A stretch of DNA of 32,000 nt from Candidatus Thalassarchaeaceae archaeon (GTDB taxonomy: Archaea; Thermoplasmatota; Poseidoniia; Poseidoniales; Thalassarchaeaceae). A model generated the notes under the pieces. It did no database searches. It was not told where the DNA came from and was given only the letters and a program-made list of their open reading frames with translations. How positions within the stretch are numbered: position 1 is the stretch's first letter; the number at the start of each line of letters is the position of its first letter. The DNA lies in the NCBI GenBank assembly GCA_045568075.1, contig JBJLBP010000001.1, forward strand, positions 30,001-62,000, in the 5' to 3' direction. Made by a program: the position numbers and the translations under genes. Of this stretch, positions 9,301 to 24,774 are shown in pieces.

Positions 9301-11893
9301 GGGTGTCATCGCCGGCTGTCCAAGTCTCAATGACCGAGAAATTGTCCATGTTGACTATGCCTGCACCCGAATTGCCTCCTGTATAGGCGCGATCTGGAGC
9401 GAGCATCTCAATTGTGTATACGAAGCGACTTTCCAAACCATCCTGAGAGCTGACACAATCTTGGAATTGATACTGCCAATTCCACTTACAGGCTCCGCGA
9501 TTGGTTCCTGCGTACATTCCGTCACCATCGCTCGTGACGTCGTAGAAAACGGAAGGCCGATTCCACCAAGATCCACTACTAGTCATCGTCGTCCAAGAGT
9601 TACCGTCGTATCTTGAGAAAGCACCCTCTGTGCCAACTAGAAGGCCGCCGTAATCGTCCATCTCGAGAGATAGAACATCGTCATCAGGGAGAGTATTTGC
9701 ATCCTGAGTCCAATACTCAGAGATATCTCCAGTCAGCCTGTCAACAACGAGAATTCCAAATTCGTAGAGACCAATGTAGACGACCTCGCCGTCGACCGCC
9801 ACAGGGGTTGCATCGAGGTCATCGGCACCGAGTGATTGCCATGAGCCCATGATTGTCGAGGTCGAGAGTTCGACGCGCATCACGCCCGCGTCTGGAGTCG
9901 CGATGTATGCGATTCCATAGCGCGCCGCCACCGAGTTCACGAAGTCAGAATCGAGGCCATCAGAAGTCGTCAGAGTGTCGACTAGAGTCATCTGATTAGT
10001 ATCAATGATAGAGATTCCAGATTCGCTATGGCCAACCACGAGATAGCCAGTTGAGGTATCGAAAGCGAGTGAAGTGGCTTGGTTAGAACTCAGTCCTGAT
10101 ACCGTGCCGATGTAGGAGCCATCGGTATTGTCGAGGCGCAGCACCCCAGCATTCGTTGTTCCAACCCAAACCTTGTCGTTGCCATCCTGAATGATTGAGA
10201 TAATCTGCCCGGGGCTACCAACGTAATCCCTGATATCAATCGGTGACTTCCAAATCTGGTCCGATTCGTCAAAGCGATCGATGATCTTGTTACTAGCAAT
10301 CCAGATTTCTCCCATCTCTCCATCCTCGATGTGAGATACGACCGTCATCCCGTCTGTAGATGGGCTACTGACCAAAGTCAGGGTGCCGGCAGGCGTCTCG
10401 CCAACCAACATGCCAAGCGTACCCGAACCATCGCTGAATAATGCGGTCGGGGAGTTAGGGCCGCGACCGGCGTGCGCCGGCCATGGAATCGCCATCGCTC
10501 CATTTTCATACAGACCGAGATCTGTCAATTGATTCTGCGAGCGGAAGATGAGCGAATTCGTGTCGTAGGCGTGTACCACGGCACCAGCGAGAATGTGGAG
10601 CCAACCATCAGTGACCGACAGTCCGTGGACTTGGTTTGAAGAGAGCCAATTGCTCGTCGACCAAGTCACCATCCAAGATTGAGAGGCGAGATCGCGACGA
10701 TTGATTCCAGAGTCATAAGTAGCGATAAGGAGATGATTACCAACCACTGCTAAGTCGGTGATGAAGTTGGAAGAAAGGAAGTTCTGGGTATTCCACACCG
10801 TGTGTGAATCAATTGTTACAGAGACACTCCCTGAGGAAGAACTCGTAGTGAAATCGAGAAGGTGGACTCCAGCGGTGCTCGTGGCGAGATGGACTCTATC
10901 GCCGATGATTAGAATGTCAGAGGGTGTCTCGATATTCAGAGTCTGACAATAATCGTACTCTGTCCAATCATTGGCACTCATAGTCCTGTAATGCACAGTG
11001 CAGAATCCAGCAGCCCAGATGGTCCCATAATCATCGACGGCAATAGCGTGGATACCAGAATCATCTGAGTCATCGCCAATCAACAAATCAGGAAGCATCG
11101 ACGAATCTGAGAAGCTACGAGAAAGTACCGATCCATTTTCTGTGCCAATCAGCAACCTGCCGGCGTCTTCGTCGATTCCCAGCGATCTGCCCATAATTCC
11201 TACTTCGATATCGACGATTGGTTTCTGAGCCCGAGCGTCGAGATGGAGTAGATCATCATCAAGAAGAATGTACAATCGGCCGTCGACCGGATTTACGGCG
11301 CTGTCGTGGATCTCAACATCCTGCACCGAAAACGAAATCTTCGGGTCGGCAGGTCGCAACGCCTCGATCACCATGTCTGTCAAAGAAACGCCTGCAGGTA
11401 ATTCCCACGAGGCGTCAGAGATTGAATTGGGACGCAAATGAGTATCTAAAGTTCCATTGAGAACGGTCGGTGGATTATTTTCCATCTCGTCCTGCCTACC
11501 AAGATCACCGTATCCTCGCCAGTCGAGGATCGGTGTTTGAGTATCCATCAATGTCAGTTGAGGCTCATTCGCCCAATAGCCAGCTGAACCATTGACTGAA
11601 ATCTCGAATGTCAAATTAGAGATTTCTGCACCGGGAGCGAACGGCAGAAACAAATCGCTGTAAGCATAGGTTCCATTCGCCGGATCTGCTCCCGTCGCAA
11701 CAAGATCAATCCAACCTGTATCATTACTCCCCGAGGCGCCCCAAGCGGTCTGAACAACCTGCCTCGAATCCTGCTCAGAAACCAGCTCGTCAGCACCAGA
11801 ATAGGCTGACCAGGGCAGCATTACCATCAGCATGGCGAGTAGCAGAGCAGACCTCCGCTTCCTCTGCATCGGCTGACGAAAAGACATGGGCAC
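3308..11893 (-). CDS. giant (2861 aa) type-I membrane-anchored surface protein: signal peptide, multi-beta-propeller-like region, six FN3-like modules, one TM helix, acidic cytoplasmic tail
   Basis: A single uninterrupted 8.6-kb ORF. The track start is GTG at 11893, with an ATG two codons later at 11887. See the sub-features below. No catalytic motif was recognised. Confidence 0.9.
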   Translation of the reverse strand: MPMSFRQPMQRKRRSALLLAMLMVMLPWSAYSGADELVSEQDSRQVVQTAWGASGSNDTGWIDLVATGADPANGTYAYSDLFLPFAPGAEISNLTFEISVNGSAGYWANEPQLTLMDTQTPILDWRGYGDLGRQDEMENNPPTVLNGTLDTHLRPNSISDASWELPAGVSLTDMVIEALRPADPKISFSVQDVEIHDSAVNPVDGRLYILLDDDLLHLDARAQKPIVDIEVGIMGRSLGIDEDAGRLLIGTENGSVLSRSFSDSSMLPDLLIGDDSDDSGIHAIAVDDYGTIWAAGFCTVHYRTMSANDWTEYDYCQTLNIETPSDILIIGDRVHLATSTAGVHLLDFTTSSSSGSVSVTIDSHTVWNTQNFLSSNFITDLAVVGNHLLIATYDSGINRRDLASQSWMVTWSTSNWLSSNQVHGLSVTDGWLHILAGAVVHAYDTNSLIFRSQNQLTDLGLYENGAMAIPWPAHAGRGPNSPTALFSDGSGTLGMLVGETPAGTLTLVSSPSTDGMTVVSHIEDGEMGEIWIASNKIIDRFDESDQIWKSPIDIRDYVGSPGQIISIIQDGNDKVWVGTTNAGVLRLDNTDGSYIGTVSGLSSNQATSLAFDTSTGYLVVGHSESGISIIDTNQMTLVDTLTTSDGLDSDFVNSVAARYGIAYIATPDAGVMRVELSTSTIMGSWQSLGADDLDATPVAVDGEVVYIGLYEFGILVVDRLTGDISEYWTQDANTLPDDDVLSLEMDDYGGLLVGTEGAFSRYDGNSWTTMTSSGSWWNRPSVFYDVTSDGDGMYAGTNRGACKWNWQYQFQDCVSSQDGLESRFVYTIEMLAPDRAYTGGNSGAGIVNMDNFSVIETWTAGDDTQRSRTVKIDDILYLGFENTGIARYDLTNSEWLTTWDGTQGYIDDDDVTALVPGNESGTMWAGGDFGLTLIDVVNDDVLISWNRGSNANGPTLSNSPPADIIIHDGILHYSLQRANGWWSQSDEIYRIEISSNSSLSTIDAGAQAGWAGVVYGIGTVGEQLWVGVRPTQYWNDGDGTIVRWNMTNETWEEDLPTIGNVLRVNARFLGECFPMNTTSCELWVAYGDYIIRRFNAASMTLLNEWTDIEGPIRGMEEFEGEYLFASMNGILRWDPVNATWLDSWTPGDGLPSDSEEEFYTMAIIDDDLWLGSLESGGWNAGSQIMRKNGTNGNWSSWDLGTGDIPDGYPAEIKLCDDIVHVAIGARFWWGNQGGIARYDMADHDNDQLTNEWISAMTSGTSGLSDNDPRAMACDESNRILYVGFDTEGVGFDRYNYNTDNYLSTLTAADGIGEDRIFPGGMLHENNVLLAGHQYDGEGGVSRIVTSGTATANGQVLDPGMDGCSIERAPSNSGQTVYAIGRSGQTTGMNRVDRLDNSGLIASGYDELAGLSSGRVLEIISNSTHVWVTSALSVNSYYGSSILQGEILANGSVRWEFGYNFQNDVVNDMMLDGETLWVTTAGRGLKAIDLQQRRITSTPPALHTQMDGMILENGTIYVGLMGNQGSAAGFQTYNIGNNQWGHGSLIAGLPSNLVRDFIEYGDHIMIATHGGIGMYNTTRDDWDDPITTIDGLPSPIITHLHALNTTIQGGGSLLAGGAAGLTVLHQTNLTVLNTLGFNNGLMGNTVSGIVDAGPVSRVVQNPDGTNTTLYHDAAIFISHNGQGPTRPGVAAWDLMTDMANGSYNIDMIPSNDVRAIATDDWGVHIATDVEPLVHWNGSKMKMETGVGQGSLLSWPPFQLHSDGQNIVAMSPRGLDVVDVDGNHNVVTSRIATGLQGGYVDFSGFYAVGSDGLHVYSPVVSLQEMSREHQRRANPLTVLYGGRTWDITDTTHPGMSTILVTPDDPIEIPQTSDIAAPSRLPMHVGAMTMTAPQGGSWVWARSSALNYTGTWDMAAANGGIQQAFQSAISAVGPGSSSAYLHLQLQSPEDGAIQVRITYDWERVEVPTVIVGLEDRPNDGGGVIEASWLPAEDAAWHAYRLYVWDSTADPLWEPEQRNLQDFSTYIRSNFWSRTNATVTQADNAGVTEALRDDRQYRAAIVIEYADGSLGVPMTYPLNVTPTDEVPAAPEWFSATPVSGGAAGTLVLEWAACTELDPDRTRIWAVQQEITTAIGLTDPLDFPWSTGNTTVLQLEGGVPYWFAAVCVDEAGQSSIDNATIIGPVVTAGGLDDGIPPAPITGTTAEDVPNDEGGRINVTWDANTEEDCTYYAIYALPASGWSPPSTVDGWPVSDYTVDCETTSIIIDSLGESGLIDDTVYWIGVVAFDDWGNADVDNVYIVDATPMANLGGPGSAPDRVTGLNAWDHSDDDGTAIDIRWNRSAAEDFSFYTIWVSEYPLVNVTAIWDSCEGMTYSCGLITIDQRQFGANFQLEFTAERALYGNSLDTLEVRQIESMIPLYVTVTIHDVSGNVHLSGLSDHMVLVTPIDNRGDISPPDRLQPPVLSDRPGDAGDAMFVEFIESDASDIAEYWIYAVIDTPVLLERIDDLQPALVVDREQYLPVLLTEFSAYGEDQATPLVPNRRIYVTVVAVDSSGNAWTDNLASAWIELSDELSADPCPECPDVSGMRANWNAAGSLIEVNWDNTEDPMYGSFYAYVSTESFDDTRNATLVKAGMRDTILILNEFDGEPVDREATYWIEIVTWNGQVHTYHADPTEVLPWEESSFGTTQPGDDSAGEPWIDRILAGEMNAVVIAFSVVMLLIGALLFIKPREDSAPAPWEMGALEVELEEQIEREAAGLTGDEDFGLDDLEIDEGLVSGARRKDGATSDSDESDYTATSASAGAATEEDLGPAPAPDTGVMDELLGDDDENLDLDDLDDLADDLENMADELDDDEDLDTSFLDEML
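3311..3724 (-). other. 138-aa highly acidic, low-complexity predicted cytoplasmic tail
   Basis: Contains ..EVELEEQIEREAAGLTGDEDFGLDDLEIDEGL..DSDESDY..MDELLGDDDENLDLDDLDDLADDLENMADELDDDEDLDTSFLDEML. Rich in D/E/L with repeated D-D-L / D-E-L units. Confidence 0.7.
3725..3781 (-). other. single C-terminal transmembrane helix of the giant protein (aa 2705-2723)
   Basis: AVVIAFSVVMLLIGALLFI followed by KPRED. It is the only strongly hydrophobic segment after the signal peptide. Confidence 0.8.
3854..6016 (-). repeat. six tandem FN3-like modules (protein-level repeats, about 110-140 aa period)
   Basis: Strand-B/C signatures: IEASWLPAEDAAWHAYRLYVW, LVLEWAACTELDPDRTRIWAV, INVTWDANTEEDCTYYAIYA, IDIRWNRSAAEDFSFYTIWV, MFVEFIESDASDIAEYWIYAV, IEVNWDNTEDPMYGSFYAYV. 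Each is followed by a strand-F/G signature: YRAAIVIEYADGS, YWFAAVCVDEAGQSS, YWIGVVAFDDWGNAD, LYVTVTIHDVSGNVH, IYVTVVAVDSSGNAW, YWIEIVTWNGQVH. Confidence 0.6.
6040..11775 (-). repeat. about 1900-aa region of beta-propeller blade-like repeats (Reg_prop / two-component-regulator-propeller-like), protein level
   Basis: Recurring blade signatures: DDYGTIWAAG, DGNDKVWVGTTNAGVLRLD, DDYGGLLVGTEGAFSRYDG, DGDGMYAGTNRGACKW, GTMWAGGDFGLTLID, GEQLWVGV, DDDLWLGSLESGGW, GETLWVTTAGRGLKAIDL, NGTIYVGLMG, GDHIMIATHGGIGMYN. Boundaries are approximate and the fold assignment is by motif only. Confidence 0.5.
11795..11893 (-). other. predicted Sec signal peptide of the giant protein (aa 1-33)
   Basis: MPMSFRQPMQRKRRSALLLAMLMVMLPWSAYSGA has a basic n-region, a hydrophobic core and a small-residue A-Y-S/G-A cleavage-like site. 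Confidence 0.7.
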
Positions 11894-12014: not shown

Positions 12015-12076
12015 TCGAAGACAGGAGGATAGCATCAAAGAGGAGGGGGTGGCCCGAAAAACCTCGAGGGTTTGAC

Positions 12077-14359
12077 ATGACTGACGACCGTCTGCGCAAG
12101 GAAGCTCTCGATTACCATGCAGCTGCCCCTGCTGGGAAGATCCGCGTCGAACCGACAAAACCTCACGGAACCGCTCGAGAATTGTCCTTGGCTTACTCTC
12201 CGGGCGTTGCCTATCCTTGTGAGGAAATTGCGGCGAATCCCGATGACGCTTACAAGTACACTTCGAAGGGTAATTTGGTGGCCGTCATCAGCAATGGTAC
12301 CGCTGTTCTTGGCTTGGGTGATATCGGTGCCCTTGCTGGCAAACCTGTGATGGAAGGAAAGGGTCTGTTGTTCAAGGCATTCGCTGATATCGATGTGTTT
12401 GATATCGAGGTTGACCGAATTGATGTCGATGAATTCGTTGAGGCGGTCAAAGCAATTGCTCCGACCTTTGGTGGAATCAACCTCGAGGACATCAAGGCGC
12501 CTGAGTGCTTTGAGATCGAGCGCAGGCTGGTTTCTGAGCTCGATATTCCTGTGATGCACGATGATCAACACGGTACCGCAATTATCTCAGGTGCTGCGCT
12601 CCTCAATGCACTGGAGATTGTTGAGAAAGAAGCCTCAGCAGTCAAGGTAGTGATTTCTGGCGCTGGAGCGAGTGCGATATCGTGTGCTACGCATTATCTG
12701 CGTCTCGGTGTTGCTCCTGAGAATTTACTGATGTGTGATTCAAAGGGGATTCTGACTAAGACGCGTGAGGCTGCTGGCGAATTGAACGAGTACAAGGCAA
12801 ATTTCGCCCGAGATGTTCCTGACGGTGGTTTGGCTGAGGCTATGGTCGATGCTGATGTCTTCTTGGGATTGTCACGCGGCGGATTGGTATCTGGTGAGAT
12901 GGTTGCAAGCATGGCTGAGCGCCCACTGATCTTTGCTCTTGCAAATCCCGATCCAGAGATTCTTCCTTCTGAGGTTCTAGCGGTGCGAGATGATGCAATT
13001 ACTGCAACTGGACGTTCCGATTTCGCAAATCAGATCAACAATGTTCTCGGATTCCCATACATCTTCCGCGGCGCTCTCGATGTACGTGCTACTGAGATTA
13101 CTGAAGGCATGAAAATGGCAGCGACGAAGGCTCTCGCAGAATTGGCGAAGGAGCCGGTTCCTGATGACGTCGCTGCGGCTTACGGGGGCGAGCAGATGCA
13201 GTTCGGCCCAGAATATCTGATTCCAAAGCCATTCGATGCTCGCGTTCTCATCTGGGAGGCGAGTGCTGTTGCCGAGGCAGCAGTTAACGAAGGCGTTGCT
13301 CACATCGGAGCAGATGAATTCGACGTTGAGAATTACAAGGAGACGCTTGAGGCTCGACTAGGATTGACTCGCTCGATTATGCGTAACGTCATCAATCGAG
13401 CAAAGCGTGATAGAAAGCGAATCGTCTTCTCAGAAGGAGATGAGCCTACTATCATCAAGGCGGCGGCACAATGTATCGCTGAGGGAATCTGTGATCCAAT
13501 CCTACTTGGACACCCCGAGCGTATTGAGGCGGTGAAGGAAGAGCACGGACTGAACTTCGAATGCGAGACTATTGATGTTCGATACGACCCTCGTAGGCGT
13601 GGTGATTATGCCGATGAATTCCACAAGTTACGCGGACGCAAGGGCGTCACGCGGCGCGACGCTGTTAGCCTGCTCAAGTCGCCGAATTATTTTGGACCGA
13701 TGATGGTGCACTGCGGCGATGCTGACGGTTATCTCGGTGGCATCGCCCACCAATATCCAGACATCGTCAAGCCATGTCTGCAAACCATCGGACCCGACCC
13801 CTCTGCACATCGCATTGTTGGGCTCTACATGATGACCGTAAATGGTCAATTGATGTTCATCGCTGATGCGACGATCAATATCTATCCTGATTCGCGCACA
13901 CTCGCTGAAATCGCTGTACAGACCGCTCGCGTTGCACGCCGGTTCGGAGTAAAACCGAAGGTAGCGATGCTCTCCTTCTCTAATTTCGGCACCTCTGGAG
14001 AATTGCGCACCGACCGAATCGAAGAAGCAATCTCGATGGCCCGTGAGCTGGATAATGATTTGATCATCGACGGGCCGATGCAGGCGGATACTGCACTGGT
14101 TCCTGACCGCCAGAAGGAATTCCCATTCATGGAGTTCGAAGGCTCAGCAAATGTTCTCGTCTGTCCGAATCTCGCTTCCGCGAATATAGCATACAAATTG
14201 CTTCAGCGAATCGCTGGAGCTGAGATGACTGGACCAATTCTCGAAGGGCTTGCAAAGCCGGCACACGTGCTGCAGCGCGGTGACTCGGTACGCCAGGTGG
14301 TTCACATGGCTGCGATTACGGCCGTTGATGCGCAGCGACACGCTCAGCAGCGACTGTGA
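12077..14359 (+). CDS. maeB: NADP-dependent malic enzyme, MaeB type (malic enzyme domain plus C-terminal phosphate-acetyltransferase-like domain)
   Basis: 760 aa. Motifs: [61 protein letters not shown], Rossmann [11 protein letters not shown]. The C-terminal ~330 aa are PTA-like ([10 protein letters not shown].., [19 protein letters not shown]). Confidence 0.95.
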
Positions 14360-15464: not shown

Positions 15465-17081
15465 TCACTCAATGACTTGAGGGGCTGAGGAAAGGACCTC
15501 AGCAGAACACCCGGATTCGTATTGTTCAAAATTCTCGATGAACATTTGAGCCAGCAAATTCGCCACATTATCGTAACGAGTCTTGTCGGTCCAAGTATCG
15601 CGCGGCTGCATTATTTCGCTCGGAACACCCTCGCACTCAGTTGGAACGGAAAACCCGAAGCGCTCATCACGAACGAAGACGACATCGTCAAGATCGCCGC
15701 GCAATGCAGCATTCAGCAGCGCGCGCGTCCAGCGTATCTTGATTCGGCTGGATTCGCCGTAACCGCCGGCAATCCAGCCGGTGTTGATTAGCCAGCAGTT
15801 CGCATTCTGCTCGCTAATTTTGTTCGAAAGCAAGTCAGCGTACATGCTCGGATGACGCGGCATGAATGGCGCGCCGAAACATGTAGAGAAGGTCGCTTGA
15901 GGTTCTGTTACACCAATCTCAGTCCCAGCGACCTTCGCTGTATATCCTGACATGAAGTGGTAAGCTGCCTGTTCTGGCGTCAGACGAGAGAGCGGAGGTA
16001 GGACGCCGAAGGCATCGCAGGTCAGGAAAACAACATTCTTTGGATGACCTGCAGTAGAATCCTCAGTACGATTCTCAATCGCTTCAATAGGATACGAACC
16101 GCGTGTATTCTGAGTCAAGGTTCCATTATCGAAGTCGGGTACACCCGAGGCATCTAGAATGACATTCTCAAGGATAGTCCCTGGCATCCTTGTCGTAGCA
16201 AAAATCTCAGGCTCATCCACCTCAGACAATCCGATGAGCTTGGCATAGCACCCACCTTCGAAGTTGAATACTCCATCATCGGACCACCCATGCTCATCGT
16301 CACCAACCAAAGCCCTTTCAGGGTCTGCCGAGAGAGTTGTCTTTCCAGTCCCGGAGAGTCCGAAAAAGAGGGCTGCATCGGTGCCGTCAGTATTAGCTGA
16401 GCAGTGCATCGGCATGATTCCCTGTCCTGGAAGAATGTGATTCATAATTGTGAAAATCGCCTTCTTAATCTCGCCCGCGTAGTGGGTTCCACCGATGATT
16501 ACCAGGCCTCGGTCGAGAGCTAGAATGACGAAGACCTCCGAGTTTGTTCCATCGGTCTTCGGATCCGCGCGTAGCTCAGGCGCGTGTAGAATCGTGTATT
16601 GTGGAACGTGCTCGGTGAGATCGGCTGGATCGCTGCGAACGAACATATTGTGATAGAAAGCAGCGTGCCATGCCTTCTCGGTAACCAATCGCACAGGCAT
16701 GGCATAATTTGAATCTGCACCGCAGTGAGCATCCTTCACGAAAAGTTCGTCAGCCGCATCCAAGTGGGCTCTGACCTTCTCCAACAGCCCTTCGAAGACA
16801 TTGCGACTTGTCGGCTTGTTCACCTTACCCCACCAAACAAGGTCAGCTAGACCGGGTTCGTCGACGATGAATCGGTCGTTCGGCGAGCGTCCTGTGCGCT
16901 CGCCGGTAGTGGCGAGCAAGACATTGTGTGCGGTGAGTTGTGCTTCACCACGCTCTACGGCGCGCTCATGGAGCTCACTGGCATCGAGATTCCAATGTAC
17001 TGCGCCACTGGGATCGAGGCCATGAGACGCCAGCGTGGTCGCGAAGGAAGCCGGAGTGGACGAGCGGGAGGTGCTCTCCAT
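15465..17081 (-). CDS. pckA: phosphoenolpyruvate carboxykinase (ATP)
   Basis: Motifs: FFGLSGTGKTTLS, GDDEHGW, FNFEGGCYAK, VFLTCDAFGVLPP, HFMSGYTAK, NTGW. Collinear with E. coli PckA (from memory). The track ORF extends to 17165. I prefer the ATG at 17081 (MESTSRSS..), which gives 538 aa, because the 28-aa extension has no homologous counterpart. Confidence 0.95.
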   Translation of the reverse strand: MESTSRSSTPASFATTLASHGLDPSGAVHWNLDASELHERAVERGEAQLTAHNVLLATTGERTGRSPNDRFIVDEPGLADLVWWGKVNKPTSRNVFEGLLEKVRAHLDAADELFVKDAHCGADSNYAMPVRLVTEKAWHAAFYHNMFVRSDPADLTEHVPQYTILHAPELRADPKTDGTNSEVFVILALDRGLVIIGGTHYAGEIKKAIFTIMNHILPGQGIMPMHCSANTDGTDAALFFGLSGTGKTTLSADPERALVGDDEHGWSDDGVFNFEGGCYAKLIGLSEVDEPEIFATTRMPGTILENVILDASGVPDFDNGTLTQNTRGSYPIEAIENRTEDSTAGHPKNVVFLTCDAFGVLPPLSRLTPEQAAYHFMSGYTAKVAGTEIGVTEPQATFSTCFGAPFMPRHPSMYADLLSNKISEQNANCWLINTGWIAGGYGESSRIKIRWTRALLNAALRGDLDDVVFVRDERFGFSVPTECEGVPSEIMQPRDTWTDKTRYDNVANLLAQMFIENFEQYESGCSAEVLSSAPQVIE

Positions 17082-17191
17082 GATGACCGACGCTGACAAT
17101 TGGCTTTCAACTATTACGGATGCCTGCCAGTGCGAATCTCTCGCTAAACTCATGATCGCACGCATACATCGTTTGACTTGGCCCGACGGGG

Positions 17192-20100
17192 ATGCGGTTA
17201 TCGCCGGATGCCGTGCCTGTCGCGCGCGTGAGTGATGAGAAAGACGACCGCGTGATTCGCGAGCGTCGCTTCAAGATGGGCGGCAACATCGACATCGATG
17301 ATCTCGGATTGGAAGACATCCGCTCCAATGCATCCGAGCAGGAACCAACATCTCCTAACTCCGATTCAAAGCCCGAAATCGATGAAGCTCTCGGCGATGT
17401 TTTCGATCCATTCGCCGAAACATCGGGAACCGAAGCAGGAGCTATTCAGGCCGACGGAAGTGTACTATCGGCTCCCGAGGATGATATCGTTACCTCGATG
17501 GCGAAAGATGGTGAACGCCGAGTCAATTGGTCACTGATGGTAGCGATGATTTTCGTTTTCAGTGCACTGAGCGTAGTCGCTGGAACGGCTTTCACGCCTC
17601 TCGTCTCTCTGATTTTGCTCTTGGCGCTCGCCGTAACCGGCTTCACACTCGGCGAGCGCTGGGTGCCAAATCCAGACTTGCATCTACTGGGAGTTTCGTG
17701 GGTCATCATTTCGATGAAGGTCCTCTATGGGCTTGCAATTGAGTTGAATCGTTGGGAATTAGGTGGAATTTTCCCTATTTCTGTTGAAGCCCTCGCTATC
17801 CTATTGATTCTCCTCGTCGCTCTCAACGTCTTCGTCGCCTACCGCCACGATCACGATGCGATTGCGGCCCAAGCCACGTTGGTTCTCTTGGCGATTGGCT
17901 CAACGGCGGGCTCGATTGGAGGAGAGGTCGGAGTCGCTGTGATGATTCTCGTCGCAACGCTACTGCTCCACGGACTCGCCTTACACCGAGGCTCTGGTAA
18001 CTTGGCAGCCCTCGGTGTCGCAGCCTCTAACCTATGGATAGGAATGCACGCCGTCACCAATGGATTCACCGCTGGCTCTCTGGTGATAGAACCCCTCGAT
18101 ACACCACTGATTCTCTTCCTGCTCCTAATGGTAATCACTGGTCTAAACGCAGCCATGGCAGCGCGCTTCGCGCGTGAAGACAATTGGTTCTCTCAGGGAT
18201 TCAAGGCGGCTGGCTTGGGCCAGCCGGGACTCTGGGGCGTATCGATTTCTCTCGGAATGGTCGGAGCCCTCATGGCAGTCGCTTCCAGCCGAGAGGACTC
18301 CGGCTTCGCGCTCGGAATGGTGACATTCCTCGCCGGCGCCTTCGGCGGCTCTTATCTCGTCGTGCGAGGAGTAGAGAAGCTCAGGGTGGCCATTCCATTA
18401 TTGGCAGGTGGAATGTTATTCTCGCTGCTTCTCATCTTTGGGGATTTAACTGAATCCATCTCACTTTTCGACCGCTACGAAACTTTCACTATCTTTGCTA
18501 CGATTCTTACCGGATTCGTCATGCTGCGTGACCAAAACCGCGTGACTGACCGCGTTCTTTGGGTAGGTTCAGTCGGCGTTCTGGTGCTCGTAGTAATTCT
18601 GATTCCAGCCGAGTCTAAGGCCGCTGGCGGCGACGGTGGATTGGCTCTCCTAGCTTTGCTGACGACGCTGCACATCGGAACTGCCGTGCTCGCTGTGATA
18701 CGCAAGGCCCCCTCGCTCGCGGGCGCTACAGTTCTGCTGCCGTGGGCTTGGGTATTGTTGCAGGAAATTGTCATCGAGGCGATTCGAACTGTGATGATAA
18801 CGAATGGGTGGTCCGACCCAGGAAATTTGATTGAACTGGCTCCGATTCCATTCGCCGTCTATCTTGTAATCTCGGTCGGATTGATGCTCATAGTCAATCT
18901 GCAGATGGGGTCGACTGGGGTCAATCTGGCAGCAGGATTCCTCGGAATCACCGAAATCTCGGCTTCGATTCGTGATTCCGGCGCTCTGCAATTATGGTCG
19001 ATGGGACTCTGGCTGCCGATGATCACAATCATCGTCATGGCACATGCTGGAGGATTCACCGCCCTCACTTTACTCGTAGTCGTCGGGGCGGTGTCAGCGG
19101 CCCATCTTGGGGCTGAATTCGTTGGACAGAGGCTAGGAGGCGCAGTGGCGTTGCTGGCGATTATCGCTGTCAGCGCTGCGATGCTTGGGTGGAAACACGG
19201 GCTTGACGAAATGTGGGTTCTTCTGATTCTCGTTGCGACCGGATCAATTCTCTATCGCGGAGAGCCCGATGACGAGCCTCGATTCACCAATGGGATCGCT
19301 CTGATGTCATTGCCACTCCTAATCGCCATCTCAACAAATGAGCCGGCGAGAATACTCGAGGCGACCGACTCTCTTCCTGACCTCGATATTTCTCTCACAG
19401 CAGTTGCCAGCACTGGTGCGGTGATGGCGATTTATCTCCCGCGCGCGGAAAAGATGGAGAAATTGCTCAAGCCGGCCGCGGCGGCACTCTGGTTGTTGGT
19501 AATCACCATCGGCCTCTCAGTGCAATTGAACAACGATACAGCAACCATGGCCGGGCTAGGCCTTTTCGCACTCAGTTCGCTATGGTTAGTTGCGCGTGGA
19601 GAGATTCGCGCTGAGCTGAAATCGATTACCCAGCGCGACGAGCGCTTGGCGATGGTAGGCCGCGAGGCTGAAGTCATGCTAAGTGGAGGCGCGGGGGGAA
19701 TCGATGGATATGACCCGCGACGTGCAGAACTCGAAGCCAAGCGAAAGAAGCGACGCGACCTCACATCAGCAGACGATGATGCTGATCTCTACACAACCGA
19801 TGTCTCGCACCGACCGACGATTGTACTCCTAGTCCTCATTCTCATTCTCGGTGCGACAATCGTTTGGGGAATGCTGTTCGCTTCCTCCCCAATCGTCCTT
19901 CTAATCGCAGGAGTTTTCGCAACACTGCTCGTCACCATCGCTCGTCTAAGGACAAAACAACTCGAACTCGACTTACCGACTGTTCTCGGTATGGAGATGC
20001 CGATTGCATACGCGATTATTGGATTGACTTTAGCCCTCGTCGCCGGTCATATCGGCCCCGGTGGAAGTAATGCACAATTGCTCGATATGGCCGTCGTGAC

Positions 20101-20986
20101 AATTCTCATTCTCCAATTCGTCATTATCTCTCTTTACCGACAGGACAACCTTCTCGACCGAATCCCAATCGCTCTCGATTGGTTCGTCCTGCCTTTGGTT
20201 CTCGGAAGATTACTCGGGGCGGTGATGGTTGAGTCACTTCCTGCCCCGTTCACCGTCGATCCACTCGACGGTGATTTCATCGAATGGCAGATTCCATGGC
20301 TTCTACTCGAAACCCTCCTCATATTCACGATTGGCATTGATGCAATGATTGACGCTCGCAGGACGAGCGTCGGTCGAGATTCACACCAATCCAGCTCTGG
20401 TCGAGGAATGCGAACCCTCGCAATCGTCATGATTTCATGGGGACCAGCTGCAATCCTCGCAGTAGCCAACGCTGTTTTGTCGGGACGCAAACATCGTCAG
20501 GTCGAAGCAGTCGGATTAGCAATCCTCTGCGCCCCATTAGCCCTGTTTTCTCTCAGCAACATATTGCCAGCAATCGGAGATAATCTCGATTGGATCATCC
20601 TTGGAGGAGGGGTGATGATGTTGATTCTGGTCGGAGCGGCGGTACCGATGCGCGATGGTCACTGGACGATGATGGCGGCTGTCGATGGCCATATTCTGCT
20701 ATTCACTGGTCTTCTATCTGTCAACGAAGCAATGTTCTATCCAGTCGCACTCTTTGCCATGTCGACAACCCTGTGGGTCGTCGGAATCCTTCACTTACGC
20801 CGTATTCTGCGAGTTTGGGGGCTGGTCGATTTGGTGCTGGGAAGTGGAGTGGCCTTGCTGATGCTGGGGGCATCGGGCAGCATCAACGCCGGCGGCCTAT
20901 TCTTGCTGCTCGCGGTCATCGGCGCTGAACTCGCTCTCGTCACTTGGTTGGGACAACGCAACGAGGAAGCCATACTGAGAGACTGA
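17192..20986 (+). CDS. very large polytopic integral membrane protein (about 35-38 hydrophobic segments by eye), no recognised family
   Basis: 1264 aa. Layout: acidic N-terminal ~110 aa, about 25 TM segments, a charged 73-aa linker (aa 802-874, nt 19595-19813: ..RRAELEAKRKKRRDLTSADDDADLY..), then about 13 more TM segments. An alternative start is the ATG at 17276 (MGGNIDIDDLGLEDI..). Confidence 0.85.
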   Translation: MRLSPDAVPVARVSDEKDDRVIRERRFKMGGNIDIDDLGLEDIRSNASEQEPTSPNSDSKPEIDEALGDVFDPFAETSGTEAGAIQADGSVLSAPEDDIVTSMAKDGERRVNWSLMVAMIFVFSALSVVAGTAFTPLVSLILLLALAVTGFTLGERWVPNPDLHLLGVSWVIISMKVLYGLAIELNRWELGGIFPISVEALAILLILLVALNVFVAYRHDHDAIAAQATLVLLAIGSTAGSIGGEVGVAVMILVATLLLHGLALHRGSGNLAALGVAASNLWIGMHAVTNGFTAGSLVIEPLDTPLILFLLLMVITGLNAAMAARFAREDNWFSQGFKAAGLGQPGLWGVSISLGMVGALMAVASSREDSGFALGMVTFLAGAFGGSYLVVRGVEKLRVAIPLLAGGMLFSLLLIFGDLTESISLFDRYETFTIFATILTGFVMLRDQNRVTDRVLWVGSVGVLVLVVILIPAESKAAGGDGGLALLALLTTLHIGTAVLAVIRKAPSLAGATVLLPWAWVLLQEIVIEAIRTVMITNGWSDPGNLIELAPIPFAVYLVISVGLMLIVNLQMGSTGVNLAAGFLGITEISASIRDSGALQLWSMGLWLPMITIIVMAHAGGFTALTLLVVVGAVSAAHLGAEFVGQRLGGAVALLAIIAVSAAMLGWKHGLDEMWVLLILVATGSILYRGEPDDEPRFTNGIALMSLPLLIAISTNEPARILEATDSLPDLDISLTAVASTGAVMAIYLPRAEKMEKLLKPAAAALWLLVITIGLSVQLNNDTATMAGLGLFALSSLWLVARGEIRAELKSITQRDERLAMVGREAEVMLSGGAGGIDGYDPRRAELEAKRKKRRDLTSADDDADLYTTDVSHRPTIVLLVLILILGATIVWGMLFASSPIVLLIAGVFATLLVTIARLRTKQLELDLPTVLGMEMPIAYAIIGLTLALVAGHIGPGGSNAQLLDMAVVTILILQFVIISLYRQDNLLDRIPIALDWFVLPLVLGRLLGAVMVESLPAPFTVDPLDGDFIEWQIPWLLLETLLIFTIGIDAMIDARRTSVGRDSHQSSSGRGMRTLAIVMISWGPAAILAVANAVLSGRKHRQVEAVGLAILCAPLALFSLSNILPAIGDNLDWIILGGGVMMLILVGAAVPMRDGHWTMMAAVDGHILLFTGLLSVNEAMFYPVALFAMSTTLWVVGILHLRRILRVWGLVDLVLGSGVALLMLGASGSINAGGLFLLLAVIGAELALVTWLGQRNEEAILRD

Positions 20987-21088: not shown

Positions 21089-22075
21089 TTGATGACGGGC
21101 GGGTGCGGGAACAACACCGTGTCAGGCAGTTGGATATCGGACACCCCTGATGAGGTGGAGCACCCAACCGTGCCACTCGGGATCAATGAAATGGCGATTC
21201 CACGCGCCGCGATTCTACTTTCTTTGGCCACCGCGGCGCTACTAATCATCTCAACAATCGTCGTTGGATACAGCGTCTATGACTTCGCCAAGAATAATGA
21301 AGATGCGTTCTCAGTGACCGATAAGGACCTACTGAAGGATGAAAATGAGCGATGGTACTGGGAAATCGATCTACTCTTCGATACCTGCGACTCACGTCTT
21401 GGAGAGTGGAACTGGCCAGATGTGCTTGCTGACCAAGATGATGTATTTCTCTATCCAGGAGAATTGCGTTGTGATTGGGAGCATCAGGGCGATGGGGACC
21501 GAGCCAGCGTTGTAATCTACAACCGAGGGGATCAGACGCTCGACCTCGTGCTTGAAATCGCAGGAGGCGAGGTCGTCTTCGCATCAGAGGGTGATAGCGA
21601 TATGACGCTCGATCCTATCGAACCTAATGGCACTGCAATCGTTGAGATTGAATTGGAAAGTGAGGTTACCGAGCACGACATCACCATCGAGGCCTCTCAC
21701 CTGCGAGTTCCTGAGGCCGAAGTCCTGCTCGACGTCCATATCTTCGAGGGAACCGAAGCACGTGAAATTCACGCCAGTGACGGAGATAGCCTCGCGGTCC
21801 ACTACAAGGTGTGGGACGCCGACACGAATGAGCTGCTGGATGAAGGTGACCTCGTCGTTACAGCGGGAGATGATTCGAATTACATCAAGGGATTCGGTTG
21901 GTCGGCGATTGGACTCGACATTGATGAAGATCGAGGACTGATTCCAGGCATCGATACCGGGACTACCCACACAACTTTGCTACCGCCACCAATTGCTTAC
22001 GGAAATAGCGACGGACACGAACTTCAAGAGTCGTGGTTGCGCTTTGAGTTGAAGGTCGATAGAGCGACCATTTGA
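21089..22075 (+). CDS. membrane-anchored protein with predicted extracytoplasmic Ig-like region and C-terminal FKBP-type peptidyl-prolyl isomerase-like domain
   Basis: N-terminal anchor AAILLSLATAALLIISTIVVGY (nt ~21200-21268), preceded by Arg. The C-terminal ~100 aa (nt ~21764-22060) follow the FKBP pattern: GDSLAVHYKVW..LLDEG..YIKGFGW..LLPPPIAYG..WLRFELKV, versus FKBP12 VVHYTG..FDSS..VIRGW..ISPDYAYG..LVFDVELL (from memory). The start is uncertain: TTG 21089, ATG 21092 or ATG 21191. Confidence 0.5.
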   Translation: MMTGGCGNNTVSGSWISDTPDEVEHPTVPLGINEMAIPRAAILLSLATAALLIISTIVVGYSVYDFAKNNEDAFSVTDKDLLKDENERWYWEIDLLFDTCDSRLGEWNWPDVLADQDDVFLYPGELRCDWEHQGDGDRASVVIYNRGDQTLDLVLEIAGGEVVFASEGDSDMTLDPIEPNGTAIVEIELESEVTEHDITIEASHLRVPEAEVLLDVHIFEGTEAREIHASDGDSLAVHYKVWDADTNELLDEGDLVVTAGDDSNYIKGFGWSAIGLDIDEDRGLIPGIDTGTTHTTLLPPPIAYGNSDGHELQESWLRFELKVDRATI

Positions 22076-22124: not shown

Positions 22125-23429
22125 ATGAACGAGGAGCCAACCCACTTCGCTCTTCGACCCTCAGATGACCTTGTCAAGCGCGCTTCCAAGGTCGCCAAGG
22201 CCAACTCTGCCCGCAAGGGAGAGCCTGCCTTTCACATGACTGAGGACGTGCGCAGGCTCTCTACTCCATGGTCGGTCGCACAGGTGCGGGCGACGCAAAT
22301 TGAAGCGGCCGAGTTACCCGCCGGAGTGATTCTCGATGCGGCCGCAGGTAGCGGAGTGCAATTGGTAGCATTGACTGCCGGACTAAAGCGACCGGGATTG
22401 GCAATCGAACTCGATCCGAATATCGGCCTCTTATGTGCGGCAAATATGCACTCAGCCGGAGAGTCTGGAGACCTCCAGAGATCAATGGACCGCGTATTGG
22501 TCGGCGACGGAACCGACGCCGAGAATGCTATCATCGCCTATTGGAATAGTCTGCGAGAGTCTGGAACGAGGGCGCACCCACCAATCGGTATGCTACATCT
22601 GGACCCAGCTCGCCCTCGAGACGCACAAAGACATGAAATCGATGAGATGCAACCAGCGATTGGACCATTGATGAAAGCCTGGTCTAAACATCTCGAGATA
22701 GGGCCACGCGGACCCGCGGTTCTGCTAGATCTTTCACCAAGACTCAATGAAGACCAACGAGCCCTCGTCGATGCCACTATCGAGACCACCTTCCCCGGTA
22801 TCACACGAACTTGGGAATACCTCAGCCAAGGAGGTGGTAGAATCGATCGACTCTCAGTCTGGATAGGTTCTCTATCATCCAAATCCCCATCCCGATGTGT
22901 GAGAATGGGAAGGAAGAAAATCATGGCTACAATCGAGGGTAAGATTGCTGAATCAGAAGAGGTTTCAATGAGTAAACCTCCGCCATTCGGTGCCCACTTG
23001 ACAATCGTCGACCCAGCCCTCGTTCAATCAGGGCTGCAAGAGTCCTGGCTCGAGCGAGCCCTGCCTGAAGACGCCGGACACTCATGGCTGCGACTCGATG
23101 GTCGTCGCCCACTCCTCATCTCCACAGAGCGCCTAAACAAAGATGAGGAAATCGACGCCTTTGTTGTCGCCAGCGGAGAAATTGTCCAGCATAGACTCAC
23201 GCCTCCTGAATTGCACACCATCGAGCAGACGGCGGCGGCGGCAGCTCGCAACGGAGTTGGGAAAATCACCCTGCGCTGTAGCCTCGACCCCGACCTTCAC
23301 CCAACCCTCCAGCGCAGGCTCGATAAATCGATGAAGGAATTCGATGGAGCGAACGGATTCATGGTCGACCTCGATCTTGAGAGAGGCAGTGGTAGCCACA
23401 CGCTCTACATCGTCTGCAAACATGCTTGA
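22125..23429 (+). CDS. class I SAM-dependent methyltransferase, probably the PG_1098 / THUMP-like-domain family (substrate unknown)
   Basis: 434 aa. Motif I VILDAAAGSGVQLVAL, motif II AIELD, motif IV-like LHLDPARP. The C-terminal GKITLRCSLDPDLHPTLQRRLDKSMKEFDGANGF resembles the family's 'I.tRnFp.s..elrk.lk.kdGG' tail (from memory). Confidence 0.55.
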   Translation: MNEEPTHFALRPSDDLVKRASKVAKANSARKGEPAFHMTEDVRRLSTPWSVAQVRATQIEAAELPAGVILDAAAGSGVQLVALTAGLKRPGLAIELDPNIGLLCAANMHSAGESGDLQRSMDRVLVGDGTDAENAIIAYWNSLRESGTRAHPPIGMLHLDPARPRDAQRHEIDEMQPAIGPLMKAWSKHLEIGPRGPAVLLDLSPRLNEDQRALVDATIETTFPGITRTWEYLSQGGGRIDRLSVWIGSLSSKSPSRCVRMGRKKIMATIEGKIAESEEVSMSKPPPFGAHLTIVDPALVQSGLQESWLERALPEDAGHSWLRLDGRRPLLISTERLNKDEEIDAFVVASGEIVQHRLTPPELHTIEQTAAAAARNGVGKITLRCSLDPDLHPTLQRRLDKSMKEFDGANGFMVDLDLERGSGSHTLYIVCKHA

Positions 23430-23604: not shown

Positions 23605-24072
23605 ATGGCAAAAGTGAATGAAGCAGAACTAGGAGAGGATTTCTCCTACATCCTGAGGCTCGCCGACTCTGACATCGATGGTCTTCGACCGATTGCGCAA
23701 GGCCTGACTTCCATCCCGGGAGTCGGAAAGCGATCGGCCGGACAGATTTGCCGCATGGCAGATATCGAAGGCAGTAAACTCGGCGGACATCTGTCCGATG
23801 AGGAACAGAACAGGATTCGAACAACAATTGACGAATACGCGTTGAACGTGCCTTGGTGGCTCGTCAACAGACAGCGCGACCTGCAGTCCAATGAGGATGC
23901 ACACATCATCGGAACCGAGGTCAAATTGACTAAGAAAGACGATGTTGCACGCTTGGCTGCAATCAAGACTTACCGCGGAATACGCCACCGCAGCGGCCAC
24001 AAGGTCCGCGGACAGCGCCTGCGCAGTAACGGTCGCAGCGGCAGCACACTCGGTGTGCAGAGGAAGAAGTGA
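23605..24072 (+). CDS. rps13: 30S ribosomal protein S13 (uS13), archaeal type
   Basis: 155 aa. FSYILRLADSDIDG..LTSIPGVGKRSAGQICR..IKTYRGIRHRSGHKVRGQRLRSNGR. First gene of the archaeal S13-S4-S11-RpoD cluster. Confidence 0.95.
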   Translation: MAKVNEAELGEDFSYILRLADSDIDGLRPIAQGLTSIPGVGKRSAGQICRMADIEGSKLGGHLSDEEQNRIRTTIDEYALNVPWWLVNRQRDLQSNEDAHIIGTEVKLTKKDDVARLAAIKTYRGIRHRSGHKVRGQRLRSNGRSGSTLGVQRKK

Positions 24073-24078
24073 GGTGAT
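24070..24078 (+). promoter_or_regulatory. rps13 stop codon fused to the Shine-Dalgarno of rps4 (TGAGGTGAT)
   Basis: TGA (24070-24072) overlaps GAGGTGAT (24071-24078), and the rps4 ATG is at 24082. GAGGTGAT is complementary to the conserved 16S 3' end. Confidence 0.7.
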
Positions 24079-24081
24079 TAG

Positions 24082-24774
24082 ATGGGCCATCCTAAGTTTG
24101 CAAGACCAAAGACACAGACACCCGCGCACCCGTGGAAGGCTGCTCGAATTGAGGAAGAGCATGCTCTCAAGGAGCAATTCGGCCTCAAGCGAGTAGGTGG
24201 AATGCGTGAGATTTGGAGAGAGAAGTCCGCTCTTCGCCGTCACCGAAACCAAGCTATGAAGCTCATTGGGCGAGTCGACTCCTCTGAGGGGCACTTCGCT
24301 CGCGAGAAGACTGACCTCGTGACCGCTATGGTCCGCAAGGGTCTGCTCGCGGAAGGATCTAGCATCGATGATGTTCTACAGATTACTGTCGAGCACATGC
24401 TATCGCGTCGCCTCCAGTCGGTTGTTTACTACCGCGGCCTCGCACCATCCATGCGAGCTGCTCGAAACATGATTGTTCACGGTCACATCTCGATTGGTGA
24501 GCAGCGCATGACCGTTCCTGGCTACAAGATTCTACGCGATGAGGAAGATAACCTCCAGTACAGCGCTAATTCGCCTTATCTCAACGATAACCATCCATTC
24601 CGTGTGGAAATGGAGCAACTCCGCATTACACGTCAGAGTGAAGATGAGGAAATTGAGGAAGTCGGAGGCGTACGTGCCACGACCGATAACGACGAATTCG
24701 TCGAACAAATCAAGGCCGAGGCGGAGAAAGCTCCAACTGTCGAAGATACAATCCCAGAAGGAGGCGATGAATGA
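24082..24774 (+). CDS. rps4: 30S ribosomal protein S4 (uS4), archaeal type, with acidic C-terminal extension
   Basis: 230 aa. MGHPKFARPK..HPW..FGLKRVGGMREIWREKS..LSRRLQSVVYYRGLAPSMRAARNMIVHGHISIG. The last ~45 aa are acidic (QSEDEEIEEVGG..EDTIPEGGDE). Confidence 0.95.
   Translation: MGHPKFARPKTQTPAHPWKAARIEEEHALKEQFGLKRVGGMREIWREKSALRRHRNQAMKLIGRVDSSEGHFAREKTDLVTAMVRKGLLAEGSSIDDVLQITVEHMLSRRLQSVVYYRGLAPSMRAARNMIVHGHISIGEQRMTVPGYKILRDEEDNLQYSANSPYLNDNHPFRVEMEQLRITRQSEDEEIEEVGGVRATTDNDEFVEQIKAEAEKAPTVEDTIPEGGDE

Follow-up and report, generated by a model that had tools for sequence, protein, structure and literature searches.

A lineage-restricted giant membrane protein of about 36 predicted helices, with a probable new fold, in Poseidoniales

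The window, meaning the whole 32,000-nucleotide stretch of DNA analysed here, derives from a Marine Group II (MGII) archaeon of the order Poseidoniales, family Thalassarchaeaceae. Positions 17192–20986 on the forward strand hold an open reading frame with an ATG start that encodes a polytopic membrane protein of 1264 amino acids, hereafter bigTM, in agreement with the membrane-protein ORF put forward in a preliminary description of the same DNA. Many orthologues are annotated 12 residues shorter, with a 1252-residue form being common, and these calls would fit a putative alternative GTG start at position 17228. The reading frame is free of stop codons, and comparison with orthologues of about 95% identity yields a dN/dS ratio of approximately 0.12 (range 0.11–0.14). 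On account of this ratio, bigTM is a genuine gene under purifying selection and not a chance ORF.

Upstream of bigTM and divergent from it lies pckA, encoding the ATP-dependent PEP carboxykinase (positions 15465–17165, reverse strand; PF01293, E = 4.9e-206). Its orthologues are 533–549 residues long, versus 566 for the ORF in the window, and the true start is probably near position 17082. The divergent arrangement is seen in 82 of 89 loci, including those in which the bigTM proteins are 28–48% identical, and it holds across the order with the most distant lineages included. A gene for an NAD-dependent epimerase-family SDR is found beside pckA in the window. Downstream and co-directional with bigTM is a gene for a 328-residue protein (21089–22075, forward strand) that is anchored in the membrane by its N-terminus, has an acidic ectodomain and is weakly FKBP-like at its C-terminus; it occupies this place in 83 of the 89 loci. 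Both orientations are as the preliminary description gave them, and the neighbourhood conservation that it left to be checked is borne out; its label 'FKBP-like' finds some support in repeated matches to FKBP_C, but all of these fall under the Pfam cut-off (E 0.002–0.045), and a profile search against the PDB likewise returned only sub-threshold FKBP matches. The 328-residue protein is a possible candidate partner of bigTM.

The next co-directional gene (22125–23429, forward strand; 78 of 89 loci) encodes a 434-residue cytoplasmic protein that falls in no known family. There is no Pfam match to it, its profile returned only Trm14 from the PDB at E = 0.43, and an 'LDAAAGSG' motif, recognized by eye only, resembles that of SAM-methyltransferases. 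A malic enzyme gene is close to bigTM in 39 of the 89 loci. In deeper-branching lineages, bigTM adjoins genes of the PGM/PMM family and hexapeptide/GMPPB_C genes (sugar-1-phosphate nucleotidyltransferase-like); these sugar-activation genes are either convergent or located on the far side of pckA, and the Thalassarchaeaceae loci do not have them. An MscS-family gene is sporadically inserted directly downstream of bigTM in some genomes. Within the same loci, bigTM diverges faster than its neighbours, at 45–47% identity versus roughly 75% for pckA.

A protein search returned 498 homologues of bigTM, and at least 115 of the 120 matches listed are 1182–1281 residues in length, the other five being partial. 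When a genome collection was searched, a relative was present in at least 332 species genomes, and the matches run unsplit over query residues 1–1154 wherever the contig permits. The orthologues span both MGII families at identities as low as 28–33%, and the members from Poseidoniaceae, at about 33%, are full length too. The same collinear architecture recurs throughout, with an acidic tail, 24 helices, a basic linker, and 12 helices plus a hairpin, together with the signature motifs DAIAAQ(S/A)TL and GLGxPGLWG, and there is one gene per locus across the order. Since full-length, unbroken orthologues occur in at least 332 species genomes of both families, bigTM is not an assembly chimera; orthologues that are always split, which the preliminary description had named as grounds for abandoning a giant orphan protein, were sought and not found. 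The proposal that bigTM is an artefact, either such a chimera or several smaller membrane genes fused by read-through, draws on odd architectures in some short representatives (P0202 and P0197 have a C-terminal piece joined to unrelated sequence), but it is already effectively refuted by the recurrence of the gene, full length and collinear, in hundreds of independent assemblies, single-cell genomes and contigs of more than 1 Mb included, by the stop-free frame under purifying selection, by the retention of both membrane domains and linker together down to 28% identity, and by the derivation of the odd short proteins from short contigs, where they themselves look like chimeras or fragments. 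P0144, P0202, P0197 and P0164 were considered as shorter alternative architectures and rejected as fragments or chimeric calls on short contigs. Overall, a single intact gene encodes bigTM, an integral membrane protein whose distribution spans Poseidoniales and is restricted to that lineage.

A crude Kyte-Doolittle scan of bigTM gave 28–34 hydrophobic segments, depending on the threshold. AlphaFold2 models analysed with DSSP contain 24 membrane-length helices ahead of the charged linker and 13 helical elements behind it. The full-chain model has a pLDDT of 74.6 overall and mostly 80–92 in the C-terminal membrane domain, and the model of the N-terminal domain (mbadf3ba03922) has a pLDDT of 88.7 and a pTM of 0.82. 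Across 169 family members the positive-inside pattern is strict, with K/R counts of 30.9 on inside loops versus 4.6 outside. One of the 13 C-terminal elements, at residues 1069–1100 (20396–20491), is composed of helices of 13 and 16 residues, and because basic loops lie at both of its flanks (mean K/R 5.4 and 2.1 in the 169 sequences) it is best read as a putative re-entrant hairpin that enters from the cytoplasm. The predicted topology thus comprises about 36 membrane crossings and one re-entrant hairpin, with both termini cytoplasmic and the chain almost wholly embedded in the membrane. The earlier estimate of about 35–38 transmembrane segments (about 25 before and 13 after the linker) comes close to the 24 helices and 13 elements found here, but is better put as 36 spans and one hairpin. 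To our knowledge, few proteins anywhere have so many transmembrane helices. The loops are very short on both faces, the longest external one having 18 residues, and Gly, Ala and Ser abound in the helices.

The cytoplasmic N-terminal tail (residues 1–110; 17192–17521) is acidic, as had been described, with 27 D/E against 13 K/R, and alignments reveal the short motifs RxF, DEAxG, FDPF, DGxVxxAPExDxVT and GExR to be conserved order-wide. The N-terminal membrane domain with its 24 predicted helices follows at residues 111–802 (17522–19597), as delimited by the AlphaFold2 model and K/R alternation. Its most conserved core, TM3–TM10 (residues 161–392; 17672–18367), was defined from invariant columns and from per-helix conservation, which is 0.59–0.82 in these helices versus 0.40–0.55 elsewhere. 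Helices 5, 7 and 9 are near-invariant and contain buried polar residues. The core carries a polar ring on the cytoplasmic side, made up of N212, D220-x-D222, Q227, H260, R266, S268-G-N270, N319, N331-W332, S351, Y388 and R392, and these columns are invariant in a 22-sequence alignment that extends to 19% identity. D220-x-D222 is situated at the start of TM5, and its first Asp is Asn in some members. The conserved polar residues lie mostly 3–7 residues inward from the cytoplasmic surface and not mid-membrane; Lys176 is predicted to be buried mid-membrane within the core, and both it and Glu1040 of the C-terminal domain, also mid-membrane, are nearly invariant down to 19% identity.

The cytoplasmic loops of bigTM are better conserved than the external ones. 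The loop between TM16 and TM17 (residues 573–600; 18908–18991), with the consensus 'VNLAxxFLGITEISASIRDSGALQLW', forms two short helices in the model (DSSP 469–473 and 478–486, in trimmed numbering) and could lie at the membrane interface or be re-entrant; N578, E588, S596 and W602 are near-invariant there. The charged cytoplasmic linker (residues 803–875; 19598–19816) has 14 K/R and 16 D/E and agrees with the 73-residue charged segment noted earlier at 19595–19813. It carries a GExRxELK helix, a KRKKxR basic patch and then TDDxEELYTTDVSHRP. Its length differs among lineages, with expansions in P0122 (1339 residues) and P0134 (1486 residues), both of which are matched by the profile as separate N- and C-terminal stretches. 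The C-terminal membrane domain (residues 876–1256; 19817–20959), assigned from the full-chain model and K/R alternation, is predicted to have 12 transmembrane helices in addition to the hairpin. Conserved residues in this domain include the buried Glu1040, His1167 and two arginines of the cytoplasmic side, R1203 and R1207. The S-x-G-P-A sequence at the hairpin tip is conserved as well, with S1082, G1084 and A1086 near-invariant.

Searches for homologues outside the order support the earlier characterization of the protein as family-less. The window protein matched no Pfam or NCBIfam family, and there was no consistent Pfam match for 20 aligned members at E ≤ 10 or for six distant members at E ≤ 1. 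Neither the single protein nor the profile found a PDB sequence at E ≤ 10, and Foldseek returned no match at E ≤ 1e-3 for either the full-chain or the N-domain model against the PDB, nor for the N-domain model against BFVD. With both models the PDB comparison gave only helical-repeat noise; the matches listed for the N-domain model are helical repeats and large helical assemblies with TM-scores (query- or target-normalized) of at most 0.31, and those in BFVD are tape-measure proteins. An exhaustive search of 1.84 billion representative proteins, with a profile built from trimmed alignment rows (at most 1200 positions), produced only 201 matches at E ≤ 1e-3. Among those listed, each is a member or fragment of the bigTM family, apart from the orphan P0203 (19% identity), for which no relatives of its own were found. 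A motif scan confirmed the reported lack of WWDYG and P-loop signatures in bigTM and found no HExxH. The internal duplication that had been suggested for checking was not detected; block-versus-block hhalign comparisons reached best probabilities of 8% with a 20-sequence alignment and 32% with a 169-sequence alignment, not significant over 253 comparisons. A literature search returned nothing specific to bigTM and no experimental data. The confident match to a characterized family that would have ended its orphan status was sought and not found: bigTM falls outside all described families and has no counterpart among solved folds, and its fold is probably a new one among membrane proteins.

Our best guess for the function, with a probability of roughly 0.3, is a transporter- or channel-like membrane machine. 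Helices 3–10 of the N-terminal domain would form a polar pathway or a pocket accessible from the cytoplasm, including the buried Lys176, the DxD motif, Gln227, His260, Arg266 and several Asn residues, and the C-terminal domain would supply a second polar element through Glu1040, His1167 and the hairpin tip. The conserved motifs of the tail and linker could gate this machine or dock a partner. We count in favour of this proposal the short loops, the Gly/Ala/Ser-rich helices, the mid-membrane K176 and E1040, the hairpin, and the variable linker joining two domains. Buried conserved charges, a small-residue hairpin tip, short loops and cytoplasmic-face motifs are also shared with hairpin-containing secondary transporters of the glutamate-transporter and ClC types, although bigTM has no sequence or structural homology to them, shows no inverted repeat at the sequence-profile level and has roughly three times their number of helices. 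Co-expression with gluconeogenic C4/C3 metabolism is suggested by the divergent pairing with pckA throughout the order and by the malic enzyme gene often found nearby, and this would fit uptake or ion coupling in the service of heterotrophic growth. The gene neighbourhood is nevertheless weak evidence for function, as pckA is divergent and not co-transcribed. As further context, a published comparison (PMC9258230) reports that a module of widespread archaeal families is missing from Poseidoniales, among them the Mrp antiporter and many families of transporters.

Several observations count against a transporter. No homology to any transporter or channel class was found in sequence or structure; no Pfam or NCBIfam family of the MFS, APC, RND, ABC, MOP or Mrp/NuoLMN type was matched, and the sole transporter-type chains among the listed Foldseek matches are ABCB1, SUR1, SecDF and M-PPase, at E ≥ 0.25 and TM-scores of about 0.05–0.12. 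Most transporters contain an internal repeat, and neither a direct nor an inverted one is evident in bigTM at the sequence-profile level (best self-match 32%). We also know of no secondary transporter that needs anything near 36 helices.

The depth of the conserved polar residues, mostly close to the cytoplasmic surface and short of mid-membrane, also counts against a transporter; these residues (DxD, Arg, Asn) would suit an interfacial enzyme site equally well, and a membrane-embedded enzyme is a close rival to the transporter, itself tentative. Here, helices 3–10 would constitute a cytoplasm-facing, inner-leaflet active site whose substrate would be phosphorylated, nucleotide-activated or linked to a lipid. 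Such an enzyme might conceivably be a transferase or synthase that works in the manner of MraY/WecA or of CDP-alcohol-type enzymes without kinship to them, the other helices holding or translocating the product. This proposal gains from the invariant polar cluster at the cytoplasmic interface, in which R504 joins D220-x-D222, R266, R392, N212, N270, N319, N331, H260 and Q227, and from the greater conservation of the cytoplasmic loops; the sugar-activation genes of the deeper-branching lineages and the SDR gene beside pckA point the same way. MraY, WecA, AglH and other all-membrane transferases offer a functional analogy only: they too have conserved cytoplasmic Asp, Arg, Asn and His residues and no soluble catalytic domain, but bigTM differs from them in helix number and motifs and has no Pfam or Foldseek match to them. 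The lack of a soluble catalytic domain speaks against an enzyme, as do the replacement of the first DxD Asp by Asn in some members and the placement of the sugar-activation genes, with their absence from Thalassarchaeaceae. No solved membrane-enzyme fold is among the listed Foldseek matches and none was found at E ≤ 1e-3, and such an active site has no need of 36 helices.

A structural or sensory role is unlikely. The protein would in that case be a scaffold that organizes or curves the membrane, or that uses its tail and linker motifs to tether cytoplasmic partners, or else a tension sensor akin to Piezo, the eukaryotic mechanosensitive channels with 38 helices built of four-helix repeat units. 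The helix count is comparable, the bulk of the mass of both proteins lies within the membrane, and the long cytoplasmic tail and linker with their conserved short motifs, the faster divergence relative to pckA, and the MscS-family gene directly downstream in some genomes all speak in favour of such a role. However, bigTM is half the length of Piezo, has no cap or pore module, shows no detectable four-helix repeat (self-comparison at most 32% probability), and no Piezo chain is among the listed Foldseek PDB matches. The MscS insertion is moreover sporadic, and near-invariant helices 5, 7 and 9 with buried polar residues represent more constraint than a scaffold requires.

It is improbable that bigTM belongs to a described family but has diverged beyond the reach of HMMER, candidates being DUF2339, the GT-C glycosyltransferases and the Mrp/NuoL antiporter-like proteins, which it resembles in the general sense of many helices and few loops; no such family was matched at E ≤ 10 by 20 members or at E ≤ 1 by six distant ones, and Foldseek with the N-domain model (pLDDT 88.7) found no membrane-protein fold at E ≤ 1e-3, with listed TM-scores no higher than 0.31. 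DUF2339 (PF10101) comprises bacterial predicted membrane proteins of unassigned function that, like bigTM, have very many helices and almost no soluble domain. The preliminary description pointed to this likeness, which is unsupported, as PF10101 was not matched by any of these 26 members; bigTM differs further in being archaeal, confined to Poseidoniales, and divided into 24- and 12-helix domains with a charged linker. GT-C enzymes (AglB/STT3, ArnT, PMT) are similarly large and polytopic and likewise have an acidic motif close to the end of a helix, but in bigTM the DxD at residues 220–222 is predicted from K/R alternation to face the cytoplasm and not the outside, the large external loop or domain typical of GT-C enzymes is missing, as is the WWDYG motif of AglB/STT3, no Pfam family of this kind was matched, and the PDB matches that Foldseek listed include no GT-C chain.

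The novelty of bigTM rests on family and fold, not on function. It is a signature gene of its lineage with a probable new fold because it is conserved order-wide as one gene per locus, has about 36 helices and matches no family or solved fold. According to the literature, Poseidoniales have approximately 199 lineage-specific families, and membrane proteins are over-represented among hypothetical families of this lineage-specific kind throughout the archaea. It is possible, if speculative, that bigTM founds a new class of giant membrane machines with a new fold, invented in MGII and essential to it, for example a new kind of translocator for solutes or ions, or an enzyme that builds the envelope, with a 24+12-helix architecture that has no counterpart in bacteria or eukaryotes. 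MGII are among the most abundant archaea of the surface ocean, they have never been cultivated, and almost nothing is known about the biology of their envelope and transport. The role of bigTM could explain substrate uptake or surface building in MGII cells, and the structural biology of membrane proteins would gain a new architecture.

The gene for the 1264-aa membrane protein (window positions 17192–20986, forward strand) is an uninterrupted ORF of 1264 codons in the window sequence, with a dN/dS of 0.11–0.14 against three orthologues that are each approximately 95% identical. A word-indexed search returned 498 homologues; among the 120 matches listed, identity to the window protein is 46–100% and length 1182–1281 aa, barring a few contig-end fragments. 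The preliminary description had allowed for an assembly chimera, in which case the orthologues would always be split. They are unsplit and full-length, which therefore removes that objection; the gene is real and not a chimera. Scanning one genome per GTDB species located 332 loci encoding a relative, and in the 80 loci kept from these the match spans query residues 1–1154 where the contig permits. Judging by named homologues, the window belongs to Candidatus Thalassarchaeaceae (Marine Group IIb, order Poseidoniales); the names on the 80 loci are Poseidoniales, MGII or euryarchaeote. The single exception is a MAG labelled Chloroflexota, in which the flanks of the gene are typical of MGII. This locus (L070, PBEM01000001.1) carries pckA (77%), the big membrane gene (54%), the genes for the 328-aa anchored protein and the 434-aa protein, and S13; the contig is probably mis-binned or mislabelled. 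Exhaustive profile searching of 1.84 billion cluster representatives found just 201 proteins at E ≤ 1e-3, among them full-length members with 28–43% identity, some of which are named Candidatus Poseidoniaceae (MGIIa) or Poseidoniales in their sources. One further protein, P0203 (1207 aa, 19% identity), is an orphan for which no family of its own was found. Odd short profile matches were considered as alternative architectures and rejected as short-contig fragments or chimeric calls.

The window protein has no family match in Pfam or NCBIfam, and no consistent match was obtained for its family from 20 aligned members at E ≤ 10 or 6 distant members at E ≤ 1. Sequence and profile searches of the PDB gave nothing at E ≤ 10. 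Foldseek comparison of both structural models with the PDB gave no match at E ≤ 1e-3; every match listed is to a helical repeat or a large helical assembly, whether designed or natural, and its TM-score, normalised by query or target length, does not exceed 0.31. A viral structure library likewise gave no match to the N-terminal-domain model. The protein had been described as family-less, and this stands across Pfam, NCBIfam, PDB and Foldseek; the overall observation is confirmed and its interpretation supported. Internal duplication, which the preliminary description had proposed looking for, was not detected by profile–profile self-comparison (best probabilities 8% and 32%). The protein did not qualify in any membership test run for DUF2339, for GT-C enzymes, for Piezo or for the standard transporter superfamilies. 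On this evidence it represents a new family with a fold unmatched in the PDB, where coverage of membrane folds is uneven, and its novelty is high at both family and fold level.

The first 110 residues are acidic (27 D/E versus 13 K/R), and a charged linker is present at residues 803–875 (nt 19598–19816), as had been claimed. A motif check agreed with the earlier reading that WWDYG and P-loop motifs are lacking, and HExxH is also absent. A crude hydropathy scan yields 28–34 hydrophobic segments. The AlphaFold2 model of the chain without its tail (residues 111–1264, alignment of 20 sequences) has a mean pLDDT of 74.6 and pTM of 0.59, with pLDDT mostly 80–92 in the C-terminal domain; that of the N-terminal domain (residues 111–813, alignment of 70 sequences down to 19% identity) reaches 88.7 and 0.82. 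By DSSP, the part preceding the linker contains 24 helices of membrane length and the part following it 13 helical elements. Lys and Arg counts per loop in 169 full-length family members alternate strictly along the chain: 'inside' loops average 0.9–5.4 each (30.9 in total, linker excluded) and 'outside' loops 0–1.3 (4.6 in total), with the inside total the larger in 169/169 sequences. Residues 1069–1100 form a pair of short helices, 13 and 16 residues long, and are best read as a hairpin entering from the cytoplasm because the loops on either side are both basic. The predicted topology thus has a cytoplasmic N-terminus, 24 spans, a cytoplasmic linker, 12 spans plus one hairpin, and a cytoplasmic C-terminus. 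Linker length differs among lineages: in two profile-search proteins, P0122 (1339 aa) and P0134 (1486 aa), the linker is expanded, and the profile aligns to the N and C parts separately. This favours a pair of membrane domains that fold independently and are joined by a flexible tether.

In a 22-sequence alignment covering the whole family, conservation peaks in helices 3–10 (residues 161–392), above all in helices 5, 7 and 9, and cytoplasmic loops are more conserved than external ones. Among the polar residues that are invariant or nearly so, Lys176 lies midway along helix 3, and D220-x-D222 and Gln227 lie where helix 5 begins on the cytoplasmic side; others are Asn212, His260, Arg266, Ser268-Gly-Asn270, Trp282, His286, Asn319, Asn331-Trp332, Ser351, Tyr388, Arg392, Asp453 and Arg504. 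In the C-terminal domain such residues are Arg920, Arg990, the buried Glu1040, Arg1057, His1167, Arg1203, Arg1207 and the hairpin tip S1082-x-G1084-P-A1086. Motifs in the 'disordered' tail and in the linker are conserved order-wide. The protein has diverged more rapidly than its neighbours, with 45–47% identity versus approximately 75% for pckA at the same loci.

Over 89 loci, the gene is flanked upstream by divergent pckA (82/89) and a malic enzyme gene (39/89), and downstream by the genes for the 328-aa anchored protein (83/89) and the 434-aa protein (78/89) and by the uS13 operon (73/89), of which archaeal-type uS13 and uS4 genes lie at 23605–24774 in the window and mark its source as archaeal. 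Even the lineages furthest removed (L085, L087, L089) keep the pckA pairing, with different downstream genes. The window pckA ORF (15465–17165, reverse strand) is listed at 566 aa, its orthologues are called at 533–549 aa, and its Pfam match begins at residue 55; it is probably over-extended, and a start near 17082 would give a divergent intergenic region (17082–17192) of approximately 110 nt versus 26 nt. In deeper-branching lineages (L085, L086, L087, L089) a PGM/PMM-family gene (530–650 aa) adjoins the pair, usually beside a hexapeptide/GMPPB_C gene, none being seen in L087; in L086 both follow pckA on the same strand in an operon-like arrangement.

Inserts directly after the big membrane gene are sporadic. 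An MscS-family channel gene (PF00924, E=3e-7) lies between it and the 328-aa gene in L009 (9510–10577, forward strand); four further Thalassarchaeaceae genomes (L006, L011, L014, L015) show a gap of similar size there and may carry the same insert. In L086 a rhomboid-family protease gene (12017–12832, forward strand; 27 bits against a Pfam cut-off of 22.6) shares 4 nt with the end of the big membrane gene, including its stop codon, which suggests translational coupling. It precedes the gene for the single-pass 328-aa homologue, and that anchored protein could be a substrate of the protease. Elsewhere in the window, a giant ORF of 2861 aa (3308–11893, reverse strand) contains beta-propeller repeats (PorZ_N_b_propeller, Reg_prop) and probably encodes a large surface protein, and a homologue of approximately 2860 aa occupies the same place in locus L001. 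At 172–3263 (reverse strand), a 771-aa fusion of chorismate-binding and glutamine-amidotransferase parts, with a class IV aminotransferase next in order, looks like a pabAB–pabC type para-aminobenzoate module.

Readings of function are inferred from anatomy; they are not strictly exclusive, and their probabilities need not add up to 1. A transporter- or channel-like machine is tentatively proposed, at a probability of roughly 0.3. Typical of such a machine would be the all-membrane build with very short loops, the small-residue-rich helices, the membrane-buried conserved charges Lys176 and Glu1040, the putative re-entrant hairpin with its conserved small-residue tip, and the conserved motifs of the cytoplasmic tail and linker. 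An interfacial membrane-embedded enzyme, an alternative only slightly less probable, would fit equally well with two features: the Asp, Arg, Asn and His residues that ring the cytoplasmic interface of helices 4–10 and include a DxD motif, and the presence of sugar-activation genes close by in the deep lineages. A scaffold or sensor is unlikely, a divergent member of a described family more unlikely still, and an artefact so improbable that it may be set aside.

Of the downstream neighbours, the conserved 434-aa protein (22125–23429, forward strand) belongs to no Pfam family, and its gene immediately precedes the uS13-uS4-uS11-RpoD operon. Its glycine motif, VILDAAAGSGVQ, resembles that of SAM methyltransferases, and the protein may be an RNA methyltransferase that has gone unrecognised. 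The acidic 328-aa protein (21089–22075, forward strand) keeps its linkage to pckA and the big membrane gene as far out as locus L089, a distant one. Repeated sub-threshold FKBP_C matches (E 0.002–0.045) cover its last approximately 95 residues in the window protein and 2/4 orthologues scanned. If true, this match would make the C-terminus of the 328-aa protein a PPIase-like domain facing the outside of the cell.
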